A program made the translations under genes and the position numbers. This document shows positions 1-63,926 of a stretch of DNA of 64,000 nt, one piece after another. The DNA is from an uncultured Candidatus Saccharibacteria bacterium (lineage in GTDB: Bacteria; Patescibacteriota; Minisyncoccia; Phycocordibacterales; UBA9973). The notes beneath the pieces were generated by a model, which saw only the letters and a list, made by a program, of their open reading frames with translations, did not search any database and had not been told where the DNA came from. The stretch covers positions 71,058 through 135,057 of the forward strand of contig CAZDGL010000001.1 of NCBI GenBank assembly GCA_964505155.1, in the 5' to 3' direction. The first letter of the stretch is position 1, and each line of letters starts with the position of its first letter.

Positions 1-615
1 ATCCAGTTTTTTTACCTATTTTTTTGAGTCTACCCTTTTCAACAGATTCTTTAGATTTAGGGATACCTTTAAAACGTTTAGAAACTTGTTCTCCGAATCC
101 AATAGGTTTGTTTATACCTTTACCTTTACCGGGAAATTTCTTTCCACGACTAGAAGATCCACTTTTATATTTAAACTCTTCTAATTCTTCTGGAGTAAGT
201 GAATCCATCCATTTTTTCATACCTATCTTAGTTTTTTCAGAAGTAAGTTTCCTGTTTTTATGATCTGAATAATATTCCTTTAACGAAGTAGATGCTTTAA
301 TTCTACTATCATTAGAAACTGATCTACCATAAGACCCTTCACCACCTAAAGTCTGGTTATACCCATTATTAAAAGTATCTAATAGATTAATCCAATACTG
401 TTCTTTAAGAAGTAACTCTTCATATGAAGAAGCTTCATCTATTTCTTTAATAGAAAAATTCTCTATTCCATATTTTCGCATAGCTTTATGAAGATGGAGA
501 TTTGAATTACTATTTGTACTTAATACATGACCTCTAAATCGTTCTTCAATAGACTTAACTGTTTGACCTACATATTTCTTATTACTGATACGATTTTCAA
601 TAATATAAATTTTCA
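1..615 (-). CDS. GIY-YIG homing endonuclease, 3' end cut by window edge
   Basis: Minus-strand ATG at 613-615 with AGGAG RBS; translation MKIYIIENRISNKKYVGQT... carries the GIY-(10 aa)-YVG motif and downstream basic NUMOD-like repeats (GKGKGINKPIGFGE); frame stays open to position 1, so it is absent from the ORF track. Confidence 0.65.
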
Positions 616-644
616 TTTTGGAGGCTCCTAAGTACACTACCTCC

Positions 645-652
645 TATTTATA
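645..652 (-). promoter_or_regulatory. T4-type late promoter TATAAATA upstream of the GIY-YIG gene
   Basis: Minus strand reads TATAAATA about 30 nt upstream of the ATG at 615. Confidence 0.35.
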
Positions 653-662
653 TTATCGGGTA

Positions 663-1403
663 TCAGCCACATATGAATGATGGTGGAGTCTCGAATGTTT
701 GTCGGATCTCCGTCTCCAGAGCTAGACGTTCTTCCTTGGCTTCATTATACAATTCTTGACCAGACATGACAACACCACCTAGAAGCTGGACGTTGGAGTG
801 CTTCTTCATGACACTTCCCCATTGCTCTTTAAGCAATACTGTGGCATACTTCTGAAGCATACGTTCGTTCCAAACGGCAGATTGCTCTTCGGGATCGACG
901 TCCATCGCTACCTCGAAGACAAACCAATCACCTGCACGAACCTGCGTCCAGTCGATATAGATATAAATTTTCTGATTGGATCGATTGAAGTCTATAGGTG
1001 TTTCACCAGTGAAAAAGATTTCCATTTCACGTAGTTTACGATTGACCAGATACCAATAAGTGAAAGTAGTATCCGTCATATCCCAAATATCGGATAGACG
1101 CATTTGGTATTGAATGTCCCACATCGTGGATCTAGTTCCAGTTCCAGAGCTACGAATAGCTTTATAGACTGTTCGAACCGGATCTGGTAGGACGATATAC
1201 TTGTTCGTTATATCCAATGCCTGAATTTGATAGGAGATATACTTGTGTTCTGAACCTTCATCATGAAAGGTGTGCCAGAATTCCAGAGCTTCATCTACAC
1301 GATCATCGACTTGGTCGTCATCAACATTGACTTTGATAACTGGCCAACCGAGACGTCTCATGCAGTGATCTTTGAAACCTTCTCTGGTAGTAATTGTAGG
1401 CAT
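663..1403 (-). CDS. hypothetical protein, distal gene of baseplate/fibre late operon (probably virion-associated)
   Basis: 246-aa ORF abutting endolysin stop; no motif recognised by eye. Confidence 0.3.
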   Translation of the reverse strand: MPTITTREGFKDHCMRRLGWPVIKVNVDDDQVDDRVDEALEFWHTFHDEGSEHKYISYQIQALDITNKYIVLPDPVRTVYKAIRSSGTGTRSTMWDIQYQMRLSDIWDMTDTTFTYWYLVNRKLREMEIFFTGETPIDFNRSNQKIYIYIDWTQVRAGDWFVFEVAMDVDPEEQSAVWNERMLQKYATVLLKEQWGSVMKKHSNVQLLGGVVMSGQELYNEAKEERLALETEIRQTFETPPSFICG

Positions 1404-56194: not shown

Positions 56195-56815
56195 ATGCCT
56201 TATACATATCTCATTGGTTGGACATCACTTAATCTTTGGTATTATGGTGTTCGATATTCAGTTAAAGCACATCCAACTGATCTGTGGGTAACCTATTTTA
56301 CTAGCAGTAAAAGAGTTAAACAGTTACGTGAAAAATATGGTGAACCTGACGTAATTCAGATAAGAAAAACATTTGGAGATCCACATAAAGCGAAAGATTG
56401 GGAAGATAAAATTCTTCGTCGTATGAATACGAAGTTTGATTCTAAATGGATTAATCAAACCATGAATGATAGTTTTCGTGGAATAGTTGTCCCTTGGAAC
56501 AAAGGACTAAACAAAAATAATTCAGAAAAAATGAAAGAGATTGGAAGATCCATATCCAAATCATGTAAAGGTCGACAGTCACCACATAAAGGAAAACTCG
56601 TATCAGAGGAGTCTAAAATAAAAAACTCGTGGACTCAAATAATTGAACATAATCCATCACTACAATTTAAAACGTATTCCGAGTTTGCTGATGATGTTAT
56701 ACGTCGATATCAGCAAACTCGGAAAGGTCCGTATTCATTGGGAACTTTTTATAAAGTTGATGGTGGAACCATCAAAAGGATCATTCATCGTTACGAAGCA
56801 ACCATGAATTGCTGA
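56195..56815 (+). CDS. GIY-YIG-type homing endonuclease
   Basis: MPYTYLIGWTSLNLWYYGV (YLI..9aa..YYG) then NUMOD3-like PWNKGLNKNNSEKMKEIGRSISKSCKGRQSPHKGK; GAGGAG RBS; AT-rich. Confidence 0.5.
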   Translation: MPYTYLIGWTSLNLWYYGVRYSVKAHPTDLWVTYFTSSKRVKQLREKYGEPDVIQIRKTFGDPHKAKDWEDKILRRMNTKFDSKWINQTMNDSFRGIVVPWNKGLNKNNSEKMKEIGRSISKSCKGRQSPHKGKLVSEESKIKNSWTQIIEHNPSLQFKTYSEFADDVIRRYQQTRKGPYSLGTFYKVDGGTIKRIIHRYEATMNC

Positions 56816-57884
56816 TAACTTTGAATGAGATTGACGGATCCAATGTACTCTTAAAAACTACACCTTCGCGGGTTTTTGCAAAAAGTGACGGTCCTTCTGC
56901 AAATTTAAGAAGATCATCAAGAGTTTCAAACTCGGAAAGTTTATGAATTCCAATAATTGGAGCATGTTCAAGCTCCAAACGCTCACACATAATCTGTCTT
57001 TCGTATGCATTATAATATCGTCCAAAATCGATATTGAAAATATCAAATACAGCGAAACGCTGATCGTTGATATTTTCTTTATTTCCTTGGATACCTACAC
57101 CATAAAGTTCACCCTGAATGGCAAAGGAGAATCCACATTCCTGCAGCTTCCGTTCCAGATCGAGCTTGCGAGCAACCTTCCAGAAGGAATTCCCTTCGGA
57201 CTCTTCGAGATCGAGGTTGCGTGAGCAAACACCGAACCGATCAACCGGACCCTTTTTGTTATAGACAGTCATGCTGGAACCGTCCAGCTTGATAGTCGCT
57301 TCAAAAGGATGGTTGGAATAATCACGCTTGATCTTGTTGAAGATGTTCTGGACTCGTTCCTGATCAGTCTTCGGAATGAAGCTAGGGAAGTTACCGCGAG
57401 CAACACCAGCAAGGTGTGCAGCGATAGGCTTCTCGTACTTCTTGACACCGAGAACGTCAGTCAGATCCAGACCTTCATCAATCGGTTCGTCGTCAATCTG
57501 AAGAGTGAAGGTATCTGAATTTATAAATCTATGTCCATCCAGCAGTCCACCTTCCTTCAGGATTTCTCTCAAAGGAAGAATGAGTCCCTGAGAAACCTGA
57601 CCACGAAGCTTGATCGTCTTGAGACGGAACCCTTCACCGTTCACCGAACGTGCAGCAGAGACGTAGCATTTGTCTCGCAGAAATTCGAATTCAGGACGAA
57701 CTGGAAGTAGGGAGTCAATACAAAAATAGACAACGAGATCTCCAATTTGAAAATTGTTGGATCGTTGCGTAACTAATTCCCATCCTTTTACTGTCGCACA
57801 AACAATATTATCCGCACCCGGAATCTCCCTGATATCCAAGATGCGTTCAACTGTTGCAAGCTGACGATTAATTTCACTACCCAT
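56781..57884 (-). CDS. RNA ligase with N-terminal tRNA-binding (Myf/Trbp111-type) OB domain
   Basis: N-terminus VERILDIREIPGADNIVCATVKGWELVTQRSNNFQIGDLVVYFCIDSLLP matches tRNA_bind OB pattern; nucleotidyltransferase motif I IKLDGSSM; 367 aa. Confidence 0.55.
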   Translation of the reverse strand: MGSEINRQLATVERILDIREIPGADNIVCATVKGWELVTQRSNNFQIGDLVVYFCIDSLLPVRPEFEFLRDKCYVSAARSVNGEGFRLKTIKLRGQVSQGLILPLREILKEGGLLDGHRFINSDTFTLQIDDEPIDEGLDLTDVLGVKKYEKPIAAHLAGVARGNFPSFIPKTDQERVQNIFNKIKRDYSNHPFEATIKLDGSSMTVYNKKGPVDRFGVCSRNLDLEESEGNSFWKVARKLDLERKLQECGFSFAIQGELYGVGIQGNKENINDQRFAVFDIFNIDFGRYYNAYERQIMCERLELEHAPIIGIHKLSEFETLDDLLKFAEGPSLFAKTREGVVFKSTLDPSISFKVISNSWLLRNDE

Positions 57885-57918: not shown

Positions 57919-58701
57919 ATGACACAAACGAAAATTAACCAACCCATATTTTACATATATGCCTATTACGATCCAGATACGGATATTCCGTTCTATGTCG
58001 GAAAAGGTCATGGTCGAAGACATCTATCACATCTCCGAGAAGTACGCAACGGTACAAATAAGAAAAACCATAAAATTCATAAAATCAAAAAAATGATAAA
58101 TGAAGGAAAGGATCCTATTATTCGGTTTCTTGAAGAAAATCTTTCGCATGAAGAATCAATAATTCGTGAAAAGTATTGGATTGCTCATTTTGGACGAATA
58201 GATTTAGAAACGGGTTCTTTATGTAATATGACGGAAGGTGGTGACGGTCGTGTTCAATGGTCTAAATCAGAACGTGACAAAATATCAAAACTCAATACTG
58301 GAAAAATTTCCGTCAAAGATAAAGACGGAAATAGGTTTCAAGTAGAAAAAGATGATCCTCGATGGGTTTCTGGTGAATTGGTCGGTGTAGCTACTGGACA
58401 TTCTTCAAATTCAACTGGAAAACTTACTGGATACATTATGGCTAAGGATAAAGACGGGAATCGATATCGTGTTAAGAAAGATGATCCTCGATGGATTTCT
58501 GGTGAATTAGTTGGATTAATGAAGGGAACGAAACCTCATCCTAATATAATTAAAGCCGCACAGGAACGCAAAGGGTTTAAACGTTCGCGTGAATCAGTTG
58601 AACAAGGTGCGGCAAAACTCCGAGGTATTCCTAAGAGTGAAGAACACAAGAAAAAGTTATCAGAAGCTACTAGAAATTTTTTCAAAAATAAACGTTCATA
58701 A
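57919..58701 (+). CDS. GIY-YIG homing endonuclease with duplicated DNA-binding module
   Basis: FYIYAYYDPDTDIPFYVGKGHGRR; internal about 120-bp tandem duplication (DKDGNRFQVEKDDPRWVSGELVG / DKDGNRYRVKKDDPRWISGELVG). Confidence 0.75.
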   Translation: MTQTKINQPIFYIYAYYDPDTDIPFYVGKGHGRRHLSHLREVRNGTNKKNHKIHKIKKMINEGKDPIIRFLEENLSHEESIIREKYWIAHFGRIDLETGSLCNMTEGGDGRVQWSKSERDKISKLNTGKISVKDKDGNRFQVEKDDPRWVSGELVGVATGHSSNSTGKLTGYIMAKDKDGNRYRVKKDDPRWISGELVGLMKGTKPHPNIIKAAQERKGFKRSRESVEQGAAKLRGIPKSEEHKKKLSEATRNFFKNKRS

Positions 58702-59207: not shown

Positions 59208-59642
59208 TTAAGTATCCATCCAGCTATCGTGATTACATTCAGGACACTTGGGGACTAACGTGATCTTATTGTGAATTTCGGCATCGAACGGATCCGCAGT
59301 CAACTGAGTGGTTGAGAAATCATGTTCCTTACAATAATAGGTCTTGATAGGATTTTCACCCTTGATGAACCGAGCAACATTTCCCGGTCCCACAATGTAC
59401 TGATCAGCATATGGTTGACCGAGTTTTGAATTCTCGACGTGAGAAAACGCTACAAACTTACCTTTTCCATCCATCTTCTGAATGTAGGTAGTCTCATTAC
59501 CGACAACATATCGGTAATCTTCACGGTTTACTGAGAGTCTACGATAGTGCGACATAAGTATCCTCCGGAATCCAATCAATGACGGAATCAAACCCTTCGT
59601 CCGTAGTCGGACGCTCATAGGTCGATTGCATGTTGTAGACAA
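59208..59642 (-). CDS. hypothetical protein with CPECNHD zinc motif
   Basis: 144-aa ORF overlapping kinase gene end. Confidence 0.3.
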   Translation of the reverse strand: MSTTCNRPMSVRLRTKGLIPSLIGFRRILMSHYRRLSVNREDYRYVVGNETTYIQKMDGKGKFVAFSHVENSKLGQPYADQYIVGPGNVARFIKGENPIKTYYCKEHDFSTTQLTADPFDAEIHNKITLVPKCPECNHDSWMDT

Positions 59643-60021
59643 CGTCCATCGGAACCTTCTTATCCCGAAGCTTCATCCGACGTTCAATCTCCCAGATAGG
59701 AGTCTCAAACACGATAGCAACCTTGGTCCAGTCCTTCGGAATTGCAGCGAGCTTGCGCTTCCGAGACTTCACAGTCAAGTTGGTCTGATCCCAATAGAAG
59801 GAGGTTCCGTTTCGGACGCATTCCTGCACCTTCTCGTTCATCACCTTGGTTGCCCAATCAATGCAATCCTTGAAGCAATCATTGTAATTGGAATCATGCG
59901 AACGAGCGTATTCCTCGATGGTGGAGTCCGTGTCGACTACCACCTTGTTGGGAATCTTGGAAAGAAAGGTGGATTTCCCTGAGCAAGGGAGACCCACCAA
60001 CATGAAAAGCGTCTTGTTCAT
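59539..60021 (-). CDS. polynucleotide 5'-kinase (P-loop, Pnkp kinase-domain-like)
   Basis: LVGLPCSGKSTF Walker A at N-terminus as in T4 Pnkp kinase domain; 160 aa, no phosphatase domain. Confidence 0.55.
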   Translation of the reverse strand: MNKTLFMLVGLPCSGKSTFLSKIPNKVVVDTDSTIEEYARSHDSNYNDCFKDCIDWATKVMNEKVQECVRNGTSFYWDQTNLTVKSRKRKLAAIPKDWTKVAIVFETPIWEIERRMKLRDKKVPMDVVYNMQSTYERPTTDEGFDSVIDWIPEDTYVALS

Positions 60022-60250
60022 ACTTTTTAATCTACCTCACATAATTATTAAAGTCAAGATGGACTCTTATAATTAACAGGAAAACACAAAATATTATCTT
60101 CAGTTGGTGATCTCCACCATTCAGAAGAATGCAATAGTATAGCTTCTTTAGTTGCTACACATTCTTCCATAGTATCAAACCTCATAAGAGAATCTCCTTT
60201 GGTATATCCACCACCATATACCATCCACAATATGAAAAAAGTTTTCAGCA

Positions 60251-60925
60251 TTATTCTGCATCCTCTATGTTATGATATTCCCACCGCAAGTTACCCCAGA
60301 GGACTCGGTTCTCCTCAATCTTGCGATTGGAATTTACCGACTTCTTGAGTCGCTCGATTACCAGTTCCCGAATGACATTCTCGTCCACGTCTTTGTCCCA
60401 CAATGCGAACATGAAGGATCGAACCATATCAGAAGTCCCATCGGTTGCGGTATAAATCGCAAAATCCTTCTTAGTAGCAAACCGGCATTTGAAGTTCCAG
60501 AATTTGGAAGAAATCTGGTTCTTGAAATCCGTGACGTGCATCCAGAATTTAGTCGTGAACCTACGAAGCTTATCCGCGTCCTCCTTGTAGAGGATAGGGA
60601 GAAGGTCGTCAATACCCTGATTGATGATGCATTCGAGCACCGCTTTCTCCGAGGTAATCATGCTCTTGGCTTTGTGGATTGCACAGTATGCATCCGTCTT
60701 GACCTTGAGCATGTGACCGTCATCAAATCGGATAACCCAACCTTCACCTTCCTGCTGAGTACGAGCAAGCTCCATGATGTTCTCGACCGTACCCTCATAA
60801 GCTCGCACGACTGGAATATTAAATTTTTTTCCAATATCCATCAGATTCATCATAAATAACCTTTGAGTGGTGTTCATTTTTAGGAGAAAATTTTGTATTA
60901 TGTTTATTTTTATATAGACCCCCAA
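60251..60925 (-). CDS. rnlA: RNA ligase 1 (RnlA), C-terminal half
   Basis: EGEGWVIRFDDGHMLKVKTDAYCAIH aligns with T4 Rnl1 [25 protein letters not shown]; continues T4 Rnl1 colinearly from where 61458-62066 stops. Confidence 0.55.
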   Translation of the reverse strand: MGVYIKINIIQNFLLKMNTTQRLFMMNLMDIGKKFNIPVVRAYEGTVENIMELARTQQEGEGWVIRFDDGHMLKVKTDAYCAIHKAKSMITSEKAVLECIINQGIDDLLPILYKEDADKLRRFTTKFWMHVTDFKNQISSKFWNFKCRFATKKDFAIYTATDGTSDMVRSFMFALWDKDVDENVIRELVIERLKKSVNSNRKIEENRVLWGNLRWEYHNIEDAE

Positions 60926-61492
60926 ACAAATTTACCTTTTTACATTGGCAAAGGTTCAGGATATCGATTATATGATCATATCAAAAATCATACATCATCT
61001 TCTAAGAGAGTGCAAGATAAAATTTCAAATCTTCGTTCCAAAAATTTGGATCCATTGATTGAAATTTATAAAGATGAATTAACCGAAGATGAAGCTTACG
61101 ACCTCGAAAAAACATTGATTTCTAAGTATGGAAGAAAGGGATATGATCAGAATGGAATATTAATGAATATATGTGAAGATTATAGACCACCTAAAAGAGG
61201 CAAATGGACTGAGGAATCGAAAAAGAAACAATCACTTTCGATGAAAGGTAAAAATAAAGGTAAAGTGCCATGGAATAAAGGAAAGTCTCATAAGAGAGGT
61301 GCACAAACTCCACAACAAACTATACTAATAATGAAAACTAGACTTAAAAAATTAATGGGTATTATTTTAAGTCATTACGATGAAGTTACAGAATTCACTA
61401 TATCCGAATCAAAACGTCTAAAAATAATACCCAAAACCTCACCAATTTCAATGAAAGTTATCTCTCAGTATACGGGAGATATTCTCCCGTAA
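60893..61492 (+). CDS. GIY-YIG homing endonuclease inserted antisense between the two rnlA halves
   Basis: MYYVYFYIDPQTNLPFYIGKGSGYR; K-rich NUMOD-like tail; strongly AT-rich; overlaps both rnlA pieces by about 35 nt. Confidence 0.75.
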   Translation: MYYVYFYIDPQTNLPFYIGKGSGYRLYDHIKNHTSSSKRVQDKISNLRSKNLDPLIEIYKDELTEDEAYDLEKTLISKYGRKGYDQNGILMNICEDYRPPKRGKWTEESKKKQSLSMKGKNKGKVPWNKGKSHKRGAQTPQQTILIMKTRLKKLMGIILSHYDEVTEFTISESKRLKIIPKTSPISMKVISQYTGDILP

Positions 61493-62066
61493 AAGTATTT
61501 CTTATTGCTGTCAAAATAAGATCGTGCTCTGAATAATTTACAACAATTCTATTAGATGGTCCTATCCATTCAAATATAGGAGTTAAATTATTCTCAAAAC
61601 ACCACTGAGCTAATTCAGTATATTGTGGTCTGGTGGAAACAAAATCCTCAACCATATCGGAAAATCCGTCAGTGACACCCATTTTGGTACCCCAACGAAT
61701 CTTCTGTTCATAGGCATTCCAAAGTGGAGTCACCATGGATCCATCAAGCTTTTCCAGAATGACGTGGTGCTGAGTGAAATCGATGTTCTCGATCTTCGTC
61801 TCTTCACGTTCGTTCAGGTTGAAAAACTTGTGGAGTCGACGTGCGAGAGGCTTACCCTCGTTATCGAATACAATCCCTCGGCATTCCCGAAGGATTGCTT
61901 CCATAGAATCACCGCGAGCATCAAGGAAGGTCTTGTCAGTCGCGAATGAATAGTTCGCTACCTGATACCAATCCCTGTCCGCGATAAAAAATTCGGTTCG
62001 TTCAGACTTATCAATAGCTGAACGAACCGTCTCAATGTTCATGATATAAGGGAACTTGTAGTTCAC
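61458..62066 (-). CDS. rnlA: RNA ligase 1 (RnlA), N-terminal half with motif I
   Basis: LRECRGIVFDNEGKPLARRLHKFFNLNE...VILEKLDGSMV...FEWIGPSNRIVVNYSEHDLILTAIRNTFTGEY parallels T4 Rnl1 [31 protein letters not shown]...ILTKEDGSLV...[32 protein letters not shown]. Confidence 0.7.
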   Translation of the reverse strand: MNYKFPYIMNIETVRSAIDKSERTEFFIADRDWYQVANYSFATDKTFLDARGDSMEAILRECRGIVFDNEGKPLARRLHKFFNLNEREETKIENIDFTQHHVILEKLDGSMVTPLWNAYEQKIRWGTKMGVTDGFSDMVEDFVSTRPQYTELAQWCFENNLTPIFEWIGPSNRIVVNYSEHDLILTAIRNTFTGEYLPYTER

Positions 62067-62070
62067 TGTC

Positions 62071-62652
62071 TTATTCTCCGAACTTTTCCTTGAGCTTCAG
62101 ATAAGTCTGATATTCGGGATCCGATTTCTTCTGGTATTCATTCAAATAAGGGATCCAGTGCTTAGGAATCGTACCAGTAATTCCTGCAGTCCACGCTGCA
62201 ATTTCGGCTTCCAGTGCACCTGCACCATAGTCAGTCTGAGAACCAGAATGACCAGCGTCAGAACGGAGCGTCTTAGCTTTCTCACTAAGAAACTCAACCA
62301 GTCCCAAATGGTCATTAGACCAAGCTTCGATCTTGTTATTCACTGTGGTCTCCTGTGGTTTAGTTTCAACCACAGTCTTACTCGACTCTTTGGTTTTTGT
62401 CAACCCCTGCTCATTCCGATATTTGTAGGGATCAATGAAATAACATTCTCCGGTATGTTCATCAAACCCTTCCACACTCAGAGCTTGGAAGTAATAATCA
62501 GGAGCAAATCCATTCACTCGATCCGGAAGACTGTCATTGGTTCGGAAATAAGCATCAACGGCTTCCTGAGCGGTTTTATAGTGATAAGTCTCGTGCTTCT
62601 GACCCCATCCGCGTACGGATTCTACAAAATTAATTCTGAAGTTGTTTGGCAT
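62071..62652 (-). CDS. hypothetical protein
   Basis: 193-aa ORF. Confidence 0.3.
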   Translation of the reverse strand: MPNNFRINFVESVRGWGQKHETYHYKTAQEAVDAYFRTNDSLPDRVNGFAPDYYFQALSVEGFDEHTGECYFIDPYKYRNEQGLTKTKESSKTVVETKPQETTVNNKIEAWSNDHLGLVEFLSEKAKTLRSDAGHSGSQTDYGAGALEAEIAAWTAGITGTIPKHWIPYLNEYQKKSDPEYQTYLKLKEKFGE

Positions 62653-63082
62653 TTTCGATCTCCTCTTTGATTAGGTCTACGATATAACCATGAAACAAAT
62701 CAAAAGTAAAGTCCCCTAGCTTCTCTCGGAGGAAAAAAGCTCTGGTTTGCATCCGATCATATCGAAGAGCCAAATCAAAACCATTCTGGAGGTGTTCTTC
62801 CTGAGCCGAATTCTCGGACTTCAGACGAAGAACCTCATCTCTGAGATCGTCGTTCTCTTTTTCAAGCTCATCAGATATCGATTGATATTCTTTGATATCG
62901 TATTCGAGAGTTTTATACTTCTGTCGAATCTCGGCATTTTCCTTCACAAGGTCTTTATTGGAAACAACCTTCTGTAATTCCCATGCAGCGTCCGAAGCTA
63001 GCTGTTGGACAGGGAGCATTGATGCCCACACATCCTCATCCCGAATATTTCGGAGCTTCTCAATTAGTAGATTTATGTCCAT
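62630..63082 (-). CDS. coiled-coil protein
   Basis: 150 aa, E/K-rich heptads. Confidence 0.3.
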   Translation of the reverse strand: MDINLLIEKLRNIRDEDVWASMLPVQQLASDAAWELQKVVSNKDLVKENAEIRQKYKTLEYDIKEYQSISDELEKENDDLRDEVLRLKSENSAQEEHLQNGFDLALRYDRMQTRAFFLREKLGDFTFDLFHGYIVDLIKEEIENAKQLQN

Positions 63083-63398: not shown

Positions 63399-63926
63399 TC
63401 AAAAATTCCCTTCACGAACCTGTAGACATCGAACACCATTCTTTCGGTACATTTCTACCACCTGAGTCCGGTCTTCAAATGCCATGAAGATATCAAATTC
63501 CTCCTGAAGCTTCTTCAGGATTTCTTCCTTAACAATAAAGTCCTGTCGATGATCCTTTTCAGGACGCATCAGCAACCGATGTGGAACCACCTCATTTTCA
63601 ATGAGCCAGTCCATCGTCTTATCCCGATATGCAGGAGTACCTTCTCGTCCGGTCACAATGATATTAATGAACCCAGACGAATCAAACAGCATGAATAGTC
63701 CGCACATATCGTCGTAGGCTTCGTCCTTATCGGACTCGGCATAGAAGGCTTTCCAGTTTTTTGGCTTATTTCGTACGTGGTGGACTCGGTGCTCGATGTT
63801 CGCAAGAGTTCCGTCTAAATCAAAAATGCACGCAAGTGGCTTCACATAATCCAGAACATTGAACGAAGACATTACGGATCTGGTATCAACAGCAAAATCA
63901 GTATCAAGCATCATTATTCCTCTCAC
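63399..63926 (-). CDS. HAD-family phosphatase (polynucleotide 3'-phosphatase candidate, Pnkp phosphatase-domain-like)
   Basis: IFDLDGTLA DxDxT motif I near N-terminus; 175 aa. Confidence 0.5.
   Translation of the reverse strand: MRGIMMLDTDFAVDTRSVMSSFNVLDYVKPLACIFDLDGTLANIEHRVHHVRNKPKNWKAFYAESDKDEAYDDMCGLFMLFDSSGFINIIVTGREGTPAYRDKTMDWLIENEVVPHRLLMRPEKDHRQDFIVKEEILKKLQEEFDIFMAFEDRTQVVEMYRKNGVRCLQVREGNF

Follow-up and report, generated by a model that had tools for sequence, protein, structure and literature searches.

Introduction

Conserved phage genes that are split by an endonuclease gene, the so-called 'genes in pieces', have been established in phage Aeh1 (nrdA/mobE), in T4 (gene 39/60/mobA) and in phage 25, where a seg-like gene accompanies a split gene 43 whose halves co-purify and are active (PMC2988022). 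Free-standing homing endonucleases are known to split only a small number of enzyme genes (nrdA, topoisomerase gene 39/60 and DNA polymerase gene 43), and the reassembly of the product is understood for just one of them. Here, we describe a T4 Rnl1-type RNA ligase gene (rnlA) that is divided in two by a predicted GIY-YIG endonuclease gene located on the opposite strand. The locus is part of a 64,000-nucleotide stretch of contig CAZDGL010000001.1 (from here on, the window), which consists of T4-like myovirus DNA. The rnlA region that was examined comprises positions 60251-62066 and includes three open reading frames (ORFs). RNA ligase 1 is a much-used laboratory enzyme as well as a phage counter-measure to tRNA-cutting host defences.

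Results

Both parts of rnlA are encoded on the minus strand. The upstream part (N-half, 61458..62066) starts with GTG, encodes 202 amino acids ending in TGEYLPYTER, and includes motif I (KLDGS) together with the region of motifs III/IIIa (TPIFEW). The downstream part (C-half, 60251..60853) encodes 200 amino acids from the ATG at 60853, beginning with MMNLMDIGKKFNIPVV; it contains motifs IV (EGWVIRF) and V (KVK) and a probable Rnl1-type C-terminal domain. The free-standing endonuclease gene (60893..61492, plus strand, 199 amino acids) lies antisense to rnlA, and its last 35 nucleotides overlap the 3' end of the N-half (61458-61492). When the C-half is taken as the longest mechanical ORF, it extends over 60251-60925 on the minus strand (224 amino acids, TTG start at 60925). 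However, homologous loci place its start at the ATG at 60853, as does the public gene call (200 amino acids, MMNLMD...). With this start, the C-half is separated from the endonuclease start by a 39-nucleotide spacer, and the distance from the N-half stop to the C-half start is 604 nucleotides rather than the approximately 530 bp given in an earlier note on this DNA. The same note had the endonuclease gene overlapping both halves by about 35 nucleotides. This is correct for the N-half, but the overlap of about 33 nucleotides with the C-half is an ORF-calling artefact of the TTG at 60925.

The N-half matches the Pfam model RNA_lig_T4_1 with 85 bits (cut-off 28.3), and the C-half shows a weak match to T4_Rnl1_C (20.9 bits, under the 27-bit cut-off). 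The joined product of the two halves produced a single colinear alignment with the intact Rnl1 of Synechococcus phages B3/B23 (98% of the length, 40% identity). It also matched T4 Rnl1 residues 33-289 in 2C5U (E 7e-25; about E 1e-24 for the chains 2C5U/5TT6), and it shares 69% identity over 100% coverage with an intact 399-amino acid homologue, P0001. These one-piece alignments indicate that the halves are consecutive, as the earlier note had proposed, and non-overlapping, and that no part of the ligase is missing. Neither half contains a frameshift. When the joined product was aligned with 13 intact homologues, it had only about 2-4 residues too many at the junction: the N-half continues for 1-4 residues past LPY, and the C-half begins with a methionine and 1-2 residues before it enters the native helix. 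The frame of the C-half differs from that of the N-half, and the gap holds many stop codons in the N-half frame. In the window, rnlA exists as two cistrons and not as the gene for the single polypeptide that is typical of T4 Rnl1-type ligases. A megablast comparison of 59900-62700 with 50,697 phage records gave no match, no cultured phage is close, and the best protein matches were 40% identical.

The identification of the insert as a GIY-YIG endonuclease gene, first made from the ORF translations, is supported by a match to PHROG 314 'homing endonuclease' (3.6e-11) and by residues Y3, Y5, Y17, G19, R25, H29, E72 and N92, which are invariant among its relatives. Matches to the Pfam GIY-YIG and LEM-3 models were slightly under the cut-off (24.3 vs 27 and 17.2 vs 22.6, respectively). 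The gene starts with a TTG codon preceded by AGGAG at 60882-60886, and its G+C content (GC) is 0.31, compared to 0.42 for the window.

It is common for endonuclease genes to reside in group I introns and inteins, and split-intein 'fractured genes' with an intervening endonuclease gene are known from phage metagenomes (PMC2677866). An arrangement in which the rnlA halves are rejoined, via a self-splicing intron with an antisense ORF, trans-splicing, a split intein or ribosomal bypass, was considered for these reasons. A group I intron carrying the endonuclease ORF was rejected. An Rfam scan of 59800-62600 at E<=10 returned chance snoRNA/miRNA matches and no intron or ribozyme family, and the non-coding part of the gap amounts to 39 nucleotides, which agrees with the early remark that there is no room for a self-splicing intron scaffold. 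In-frame read-through was rejected as well, on account of the many stop codons in the gap and the different frame of the C-half, and a gap of 604 nucleotides far exceeds the known 50-nucleotide bypass. The third rejected candidate was a split intein. No Hint or intein model of Pfam was matched, the halves end and begin on ligase sequence without unaligned extensions, and the 2-4 additional residues leave no space for intein fragments. Furthermore, the gap of one split relative (L068, see below) holds a further complete gene. We consider rejoining of the halves very improbable.

The search for an uninterrupted rnlA in a related phage, which had been suggested as a check, led to Logan contig L046, which encodes P0001. 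The intact rnlA of L046 (3290-4489) contains ...GGTGATTATATGCCATATGAAAAT..., and the endonuclease gene is absent. The contig is syntenic with the window over the HAD_PNKP phosphatase gene, genes for proteins of 150 and 187 amino acids, rnlA and the AAA_33 kinase gene. The similarity between both loci changes abruptly along rnlA. The 5' part of the N-half (62066-61638, GC 0.46) shares 84% nucleotide and 85% amino acid identity with L046, whereas the last 180 nucleotides of the N-half (61637-61458, GC 0.33) share only 53% and 51%, respectively. The endonuclease gene, with its low GC, has no counterpart in L046, and the first 13-15 residues of the C-half are 15% identical. Identity then returns to 85% at the nucleotide level and 93% at the amino acid level in the core of the C-half (60815-60546, GC 0.50). 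These limits define a low-GC cassette of about 825 bp (about 60812..61636) that includes the endonuclease gene, approximately 180 nucleotides of the N-half 3' end and approximately 40 nucleotides of the C-half 5' end. The GC of the cassette is 0.30, compared to 0.46-0.48 in the remaining rnlA sequence and 0.42 in the window. A tract of this kind is the classical co-conversion footprint that follows endonuclease-driven gene conversion (PMC2988022). We regard it as nearly certain that the cassette and its diverged flanks are the product of homing with co-conversion. The donor appears to have been a lower-GC relative in which rnlA was already split.

Another diverged patch was observed in the C-terminal domain. 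The last approximately 95 rnlA codons (60254-60545, minus strand) share 57% nucleotide and 47% amino acid identity with L046, compared to 85% and 93% in the adjacent core. This patch seems to be a second mosaic or a fast-evolving segment.

Relatives of the endonuclease were collected from a search of 5.8 billion proteins, and genomic contexts were counted for those members whose surroundings were readable. The family consists of 17 clusters, the window's own (NCBI) and 16 others that are 49-59% identical over the full length. Beyond these 16 clusters, identity steps down to 46% or less and covers the N-terminal two-thirds only. An antisense endonuclease gene between rnlA halves was found in 8/8 contexts (the window, L040, L057/58, L059-61, L062-64, L065/66, L067 and L068), with N-halves of 189-206 and C-halves of 192-201 amino acids. 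The genome neighbourhoods differ among the split loci. Nonetheless, the break falls at one alignment column in every lineage aligned, corresponding to T4 residue ~193 and P0001 residue 200. The nearest outgroup endonuclease, P0138, sits outside rnlA. Other searches did not add members: tblastn against cultured phages gave matches of at most 40% identity in the N-terminal part, and the one compared, in Synechococcus phage B23, is far from the rnlA of that phage. A scan of metagenome contigs with the endonuclease pattern found only distant GIY-YIG genes (29-56% over parts), none of which adjoins rnlA.

The window is part of an uncultured 151-kb contig of metagenomic origin and the GC of the cassette is deviant, which could raise the suspicion of an assembly or chimera artefact. 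This explanation is hardly credible because the identical architecture is present in independent JGI, ENA, Logan and IMG/VR assemblies, and one variant (L059-61) was found on at least 24 contigs.

Contigs L059 and L060 share an identical block of 911 bp that comprises the endonuclease gene and 127 and 145 nucleotides of the rnlA flanks, while the adjoining rnlA sequence is about 3.7% different (34 differences in 907 nucleotides). This block appears to be an independent signature of homing and points to recent mobility. An endonuclease gene unrelated to the GIY-YIG family occupies the same rnlA position, also antisense to rnlA, in contig L021 (4537-5280, minus strand) and in L022. Its product has no Pfam match, but it matches an HNH-type endonuclease and PHROG 655 homing endonuclease (2.6e-37). 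When L021 was compared to its close relative L013, in which rnlA is intact, identity fell from about 83% to 43-58% over approximately 250 nucleotides on the N-half side and recovered about 65 nucleotides into the C-half, a pattern that again bears the signature of homing.

There may be further split lineages. Among the best 150 N-half representatives at 50% identity, about 6-8 (~5%) are proteins of 203-231 amino acids that end 3-20 residues after GEY. These N-half-sized Rnl1 proteins (P0226, P0248, P0301, P0314, P0326 and P0213) have tails unlike the LPYx of the GIY-YIG family, which suggests additional splits, although some of them could be truncated gene calls.

The cassette carries sequences with which the two rnlA parts could be translated separately. 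It places the N-half stop codon 3-4 codons past the conserved TGEYLPY motif, and in the split loci the stop codon, the Shine-Dalgarno sequence and the ATG of the C-half are all conserved. The divergent spacer of the window (60854..60892, 39 nucleotides) reads ACACCACTCAAAGG-TTATTT-ATG on the rnlA strand, where AAAGG at 60860-60864 serves as the Shine-Dalgarno sequence of the C-half. Across the split loci the spacer is 26-39 nucleotides long and is conserved as DNA (CACCACTCAAAGGTTATTTAT-ATG on the rnlA strand). Six split loci retain the block despite endonuclease identities of only ~50-59%. The region in which translation of the C-half initiates is unstructured as RNA (z-score +1.2). These features indicate that the spacer provides the Shine-Dalgarno sequence and the start codon of the C-half. 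In contig L068, a gene with a GGQ/RF-1 domain (peptidyl-tRNA-hydrolase-like; 376-753, minus strand) is inserted in the sense orientation between the endonuclease gene and the C-half, and its stop codon overlaps the C-half start (TAATG). This additional gene and the overlap indicate that the halves are independent cistrons there.

The opposite strand of the conserved spacer reads CAT-ATAAATA..., which is similar to the T4 late-promoter consensus. In the window, the endonuclease strand has CATAAATA at 60851-60858, overlapping the C-half start codon, with the AGGAG sequence downstream. The spacer probably provides a late promoter for the endonuclease gene as well, although the resemblance to the consensus is only suggestive. 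Copies of TATAAATA/CATAAATA are found 22-36 nucleotides upstream of several other ORF starts in the window. Scans for sigma-70 promoters (8 found vs 6.9 expected) and intrinsic terminators (1 found vs 2.1 expected) were at chance level.

At the other end, the endonuclease ORF reaches 29-74 nucleotides into the 3' end of the N-half in every split locus read. The endonuclease ends in (K/R)EDIPQ, which results from reading the conserved GEYLPY codons of the ligase (GGGGAATATCTTCCC) in antisense. In the window, this region includes a hairpin (61471..61491) with a 9-bp stem and a 3-nucleotide loop, TACGGGAGA-ATA-TCTCCCGTA, that spans the TGEYLPY codons and the endonuclease stop codon. Its predicted energy is -18.1 kcal/mol, with z-scores of -6.1 (rnlA strand) and -4.1 (opposite strand), and it is not followed by a U-tract on either strand. 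The other split loci have only a weaker palindrome, GGGAA-TATC-TTCCC, at this position.

The halves are open in every lineage where both can be read, and motifs I, III/IIIa, IV and V are retained. The corresponding T4 Rnl1 residues, K99, E159, E227/G228 and K240/K242, align with them. The protein encoded in the window keeps all 54 columns that are invariant in 62 intact homologues. AlphaFold2 models of the intact P0001 and of an artificial concatenate of the window halves reached similar mean confidence (predicted local distance difference test, pLDDT, 88.8 and 89.2, respectively). In both models, the break is in coil, after the strand formed by residues 182-190 and immediately ahead of a helix. 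The modelled ligase is all-helical beyond residue ~256, and the last approximately 95 residues are poorly conserved even when compared to the closest relative. The split does not fall in an inter-domain loop, a possibility that the earlier note had raised as a check. It interrupts the nucleotidyltransferase domain itself, between motifs III/IIIa and IV, in a loop where a helix begins.

We propose that rnlA was invaded by a mobile cassette, that it is now expressed as two polypeptides and that these reassemble into an active enzyme, and we assign to this joint model a probability of about 0.7. The recurrence of the split in many uncultured phages suggests that the two-piece enzyme probably still works. 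Several points weigh against this model. The break is within the catalytic domain rather than between domains, separating motif I from motifs IV and V, and there are no sizeable insertion-derived tails that could hold the halves together as in the Aeh1 NrdA (PMC3045599). The phage also encodes an Rnl2-like ligase (56781-57884), which might make rnlA dispensable. The codon differences between L059 and L060 (29-31 synonymous, 4 non-synonymous) are all outside the converted block; therefore, they may predate the insertion and are no proof of selection on the split state. Ratios of non-synonymous to synonymous substitution (dN/dS) between deeply diverged split lineages would be uninformative because synonymous sites are saturated at ~45-55% amino acid identity. 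With respect to the cassette itself, the protein search returned no donor closer than 59% endonuclease identity. In addition, TATAAATA shows no significant enrichment in the window (6 copies vs 3.2 expected; the copy at the locus is CATAAATA), which leaves position and conservation across loci as the grounds for the late promoter.

The same second ligase, the same location of the break, the missing interaction tails and the same ambiguity of the codon differences could be explained if the insertion simply inactivated rnlA and the ORFs were young pseudogene remnants, the ligase being conditionally dispensable or backed by the Rnl2-like enzyme. We find this unlikely. The halves are intact in all readable GIY-YIG lineages and in the HNH lineage, even though the GIY-YIG endonucleases have diverged to 49-59% identity, and the invariant residues have all been kept. 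The rnlA pieces inside the cassette are as conserved as the remaining gene (51-58% vs 45-55%). Moreover, the conserved ATG and Shine-Dalgarno sequence of the C-half and the translational coupling in L068 make sense only if the C-half is translated.

A tail-fibre attachment activity is ascribed to T4 gp63, and numerous records describe T4 RnlA as bifunctional. One half, for instance the C-half in a non-catalytic tail-fibre attachment function, could have kept a role by itself while the other persists as homology for homing, a process that requires homologous flanks and could preserve them at the DNA level. This is quite improbable, as catalytic residues are invariant both in the N-half (the K of KLDG, the E of FEW) and in the C-half (EG, KxK), which would be unexpected had catalysis been lost.

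The genomic setting of rnlA is that of a T4-like myovirus, with gp6/7/8-type baseplate wedge proteins, gp48 and gp32 encoded in the window. The gene is part of an RNA-repair neighbourhood in which the two activities of T4 Pnkp are separate genes on either side of rnlA, an HAD_PNKP phosphatase (63399-63926, minus strand) and an AAA_33 kinase (59539-60021, minus strand); the Rnl2-like ligase gene belongs to the same cluster. Between the C-half and the kinase gene there is an ORF of 65 amino acids (60054-60251, minus strand, GC 0.34) without a family match. It is an insertion relative to L046, where rnlA and the kinase gene adjoin. A second free-standing GIY-YIG ORF (57919-58701, plus strand, 260 amino acids, GC 0.36), 26% identical to the first, is located directly upstream of the Rnl2-like ligase gene and antisense to its neighbours. 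It has no counterpart in L046, and the small genes around it differ. Beside the split rnlA of contig L062 (4318-6624), an IMPDH gene appears to be broken in two around a NUMOD3-containing ORF, and its upstream piece has a weak Hint_2 match; this looks like a split-intein 'fractured gene'.

Discussion

The observations can be accommodated in a sequence of events in which the intact rnlA of a T4-like phage would have been invaded by a cassette consisting of the free-standing GIY-YIG gene and short flanks of a foreign rnlA allele. The endonuclease, which we infer to be active and to target rnlA, would have introduced the cassette through homing with co-conversion (repair of a double-strand break) in a cell co-infected by a lower-GC relative in which the cassette was already present. 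The insertion would have occurred antisense to rnlA, at the codon that matches T4 Rnl1 residue ~193, in the loop before a helix of the nucleotidyltransferase domain. The damage may be limited by a cassette-borne stop codon shortly past TGEYLPY, while the Shine-Dalgarno sequence and ATG of the conserved spacer would restart translation at the next helix. On the opposite strand, a ribosome-binding site and probably a late promoter for the endonuclease gene would come with the cassette. The resulting polypeptides of 202 (motifs I to IIIa) and 200 amino acids (motifs IV and V and the C-terminal domain) are predicted to reassemble non-covalently into an active ligase that would take part in RNA repair alongside the neighbouring kinase and phosphatase.

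A broader interpretation, to which we give somewhat less than an even chance, is that these phages have a natural and widespread two-piece covalent nucleotidyltransferase ligase, with an active site assembled from two ~200-amino acid polypeptides without the help of an intein, an intron or tails. T4 residue ~193 would then be a generally permissive split point on which two unrelated endonuclease families (GIY-YIG and HNH) would have converged, both in the antisense orientation, and the antisense layout might itself be functional. An rnlA mRNA extending across the gap would be complementary to a late endonuclease transcript, and the TGEYLPY codons lie opposite those for the endonuclease C-terminus; this arrangement could couple the expression of the genes or lock them together.

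If the halves are active together, the locus marks a position at which a covalent nucleotidyltransferase is naturally split, and this position could serve to build split or conditionally assembled ligases. The case would also show that homing can spread a split allele through a phage population. The comparative material is unusually varied: besides an empty allele and clear co-conversion tracts, it includes numerous diverged carriers, an additional endonuclease family at the same site and a locus with a further gene inserted between the halves. The case is also relevant for annotation, since such halves are easily called truncated or hypothetical genes.

The gene rnlA is an addition to the known 'genes in pieces', and the kind of arrangement is itself already known. 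The earlier note had called the target unusual, and no description of a split rnlA was found in the searchable literature. The sharing of one site by two endonuclease families also sets the case apart from the established ones. The antisense orientation had been considered unusual too, but it has precedent among free-standing endonuclease genes, e.g., T4 segD (PMC2988022).

The nrdA/mobE locus of phage Aeh1 (Friedrich et al. 2007, Crona et al. 2011; PMC2988022, PMC3045599) is similar in that a conserved enzyme gene of a T4-like phage harbours a free-standing homing-endonuclease gene, which splits a critical region into two cistrons without an intron or intein, leaving active-site residues on two polypeptides. 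In Aeh1, however, the target is a ribonucleotide reductase and the endonuclease is of the HNH type, whereas in the window an RNA ligase 1 gene is split by an antisense GIY-YIG gene with an ORF that overlaps the upstream half. The tails of the Aeh1 halves are essential for activity (PMC3045599), while the ligase halves, which would make up a putative two-piece enzyme, have only about 2-4 extra residues. Furthermore, the Aeh1 split was described as a one-off transposition-like event, in contrast to the rnlA split, which recurs across many lineages.

Gene 43 of Aeromonas phage 25, which encodes DNA polymerase, also has a seg-type GIY-YIG gene between the halves of a split enzyme gene (PMC2988022). 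The cause is unclear there because the gene is split in phage 44RR without a seg gene, whereas the rnlA split is tied to the cassette by the intact relative and the replaced tract. The split-intein 'fractured genes' (Dassa et al. 2009, PMC2677866) share with rnlA a metagenomic phage gene in two pieces around an endonuclease ORF. They differ in that rnlA has no intein fragments and its halves end and start on native ligase sequence.

The mobA insertion in T4 topoisomerase gene 39/60 (PMC2988022; Manning & Atkins, bioRxiv 10.1101/2022.08.31.505936) resembles the rnlA cassette in its repeated occurrence at one place in a conserved gene of many myoviruses and in carrying sequences that mitigate the damage. 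The mobA cassette brings a 50-nucleotide translational bypass element, while the rnlA cassette has nothing more than a stop codon and a restart signal (Shine-Dalgarno sequence and ATG). The two cases also differ in target gene, endonuclease family and orientation. Finally, the intronless homing and marker exclusion of T4 SegB-G (PMC2988022) show the same presence/absence polymorphism and asymmetric co-conversion of flanks, and the Seg endonucleases have the modular layout (a GIY-YIG domain, a NUMOD3-like segment and a C-terminal domain) that is predicted for the endonuclease in rnlA. The T4 seg genes, however, sit between genes, whereas the endonuclease family described here lives inside a gene, turning one gene into two.

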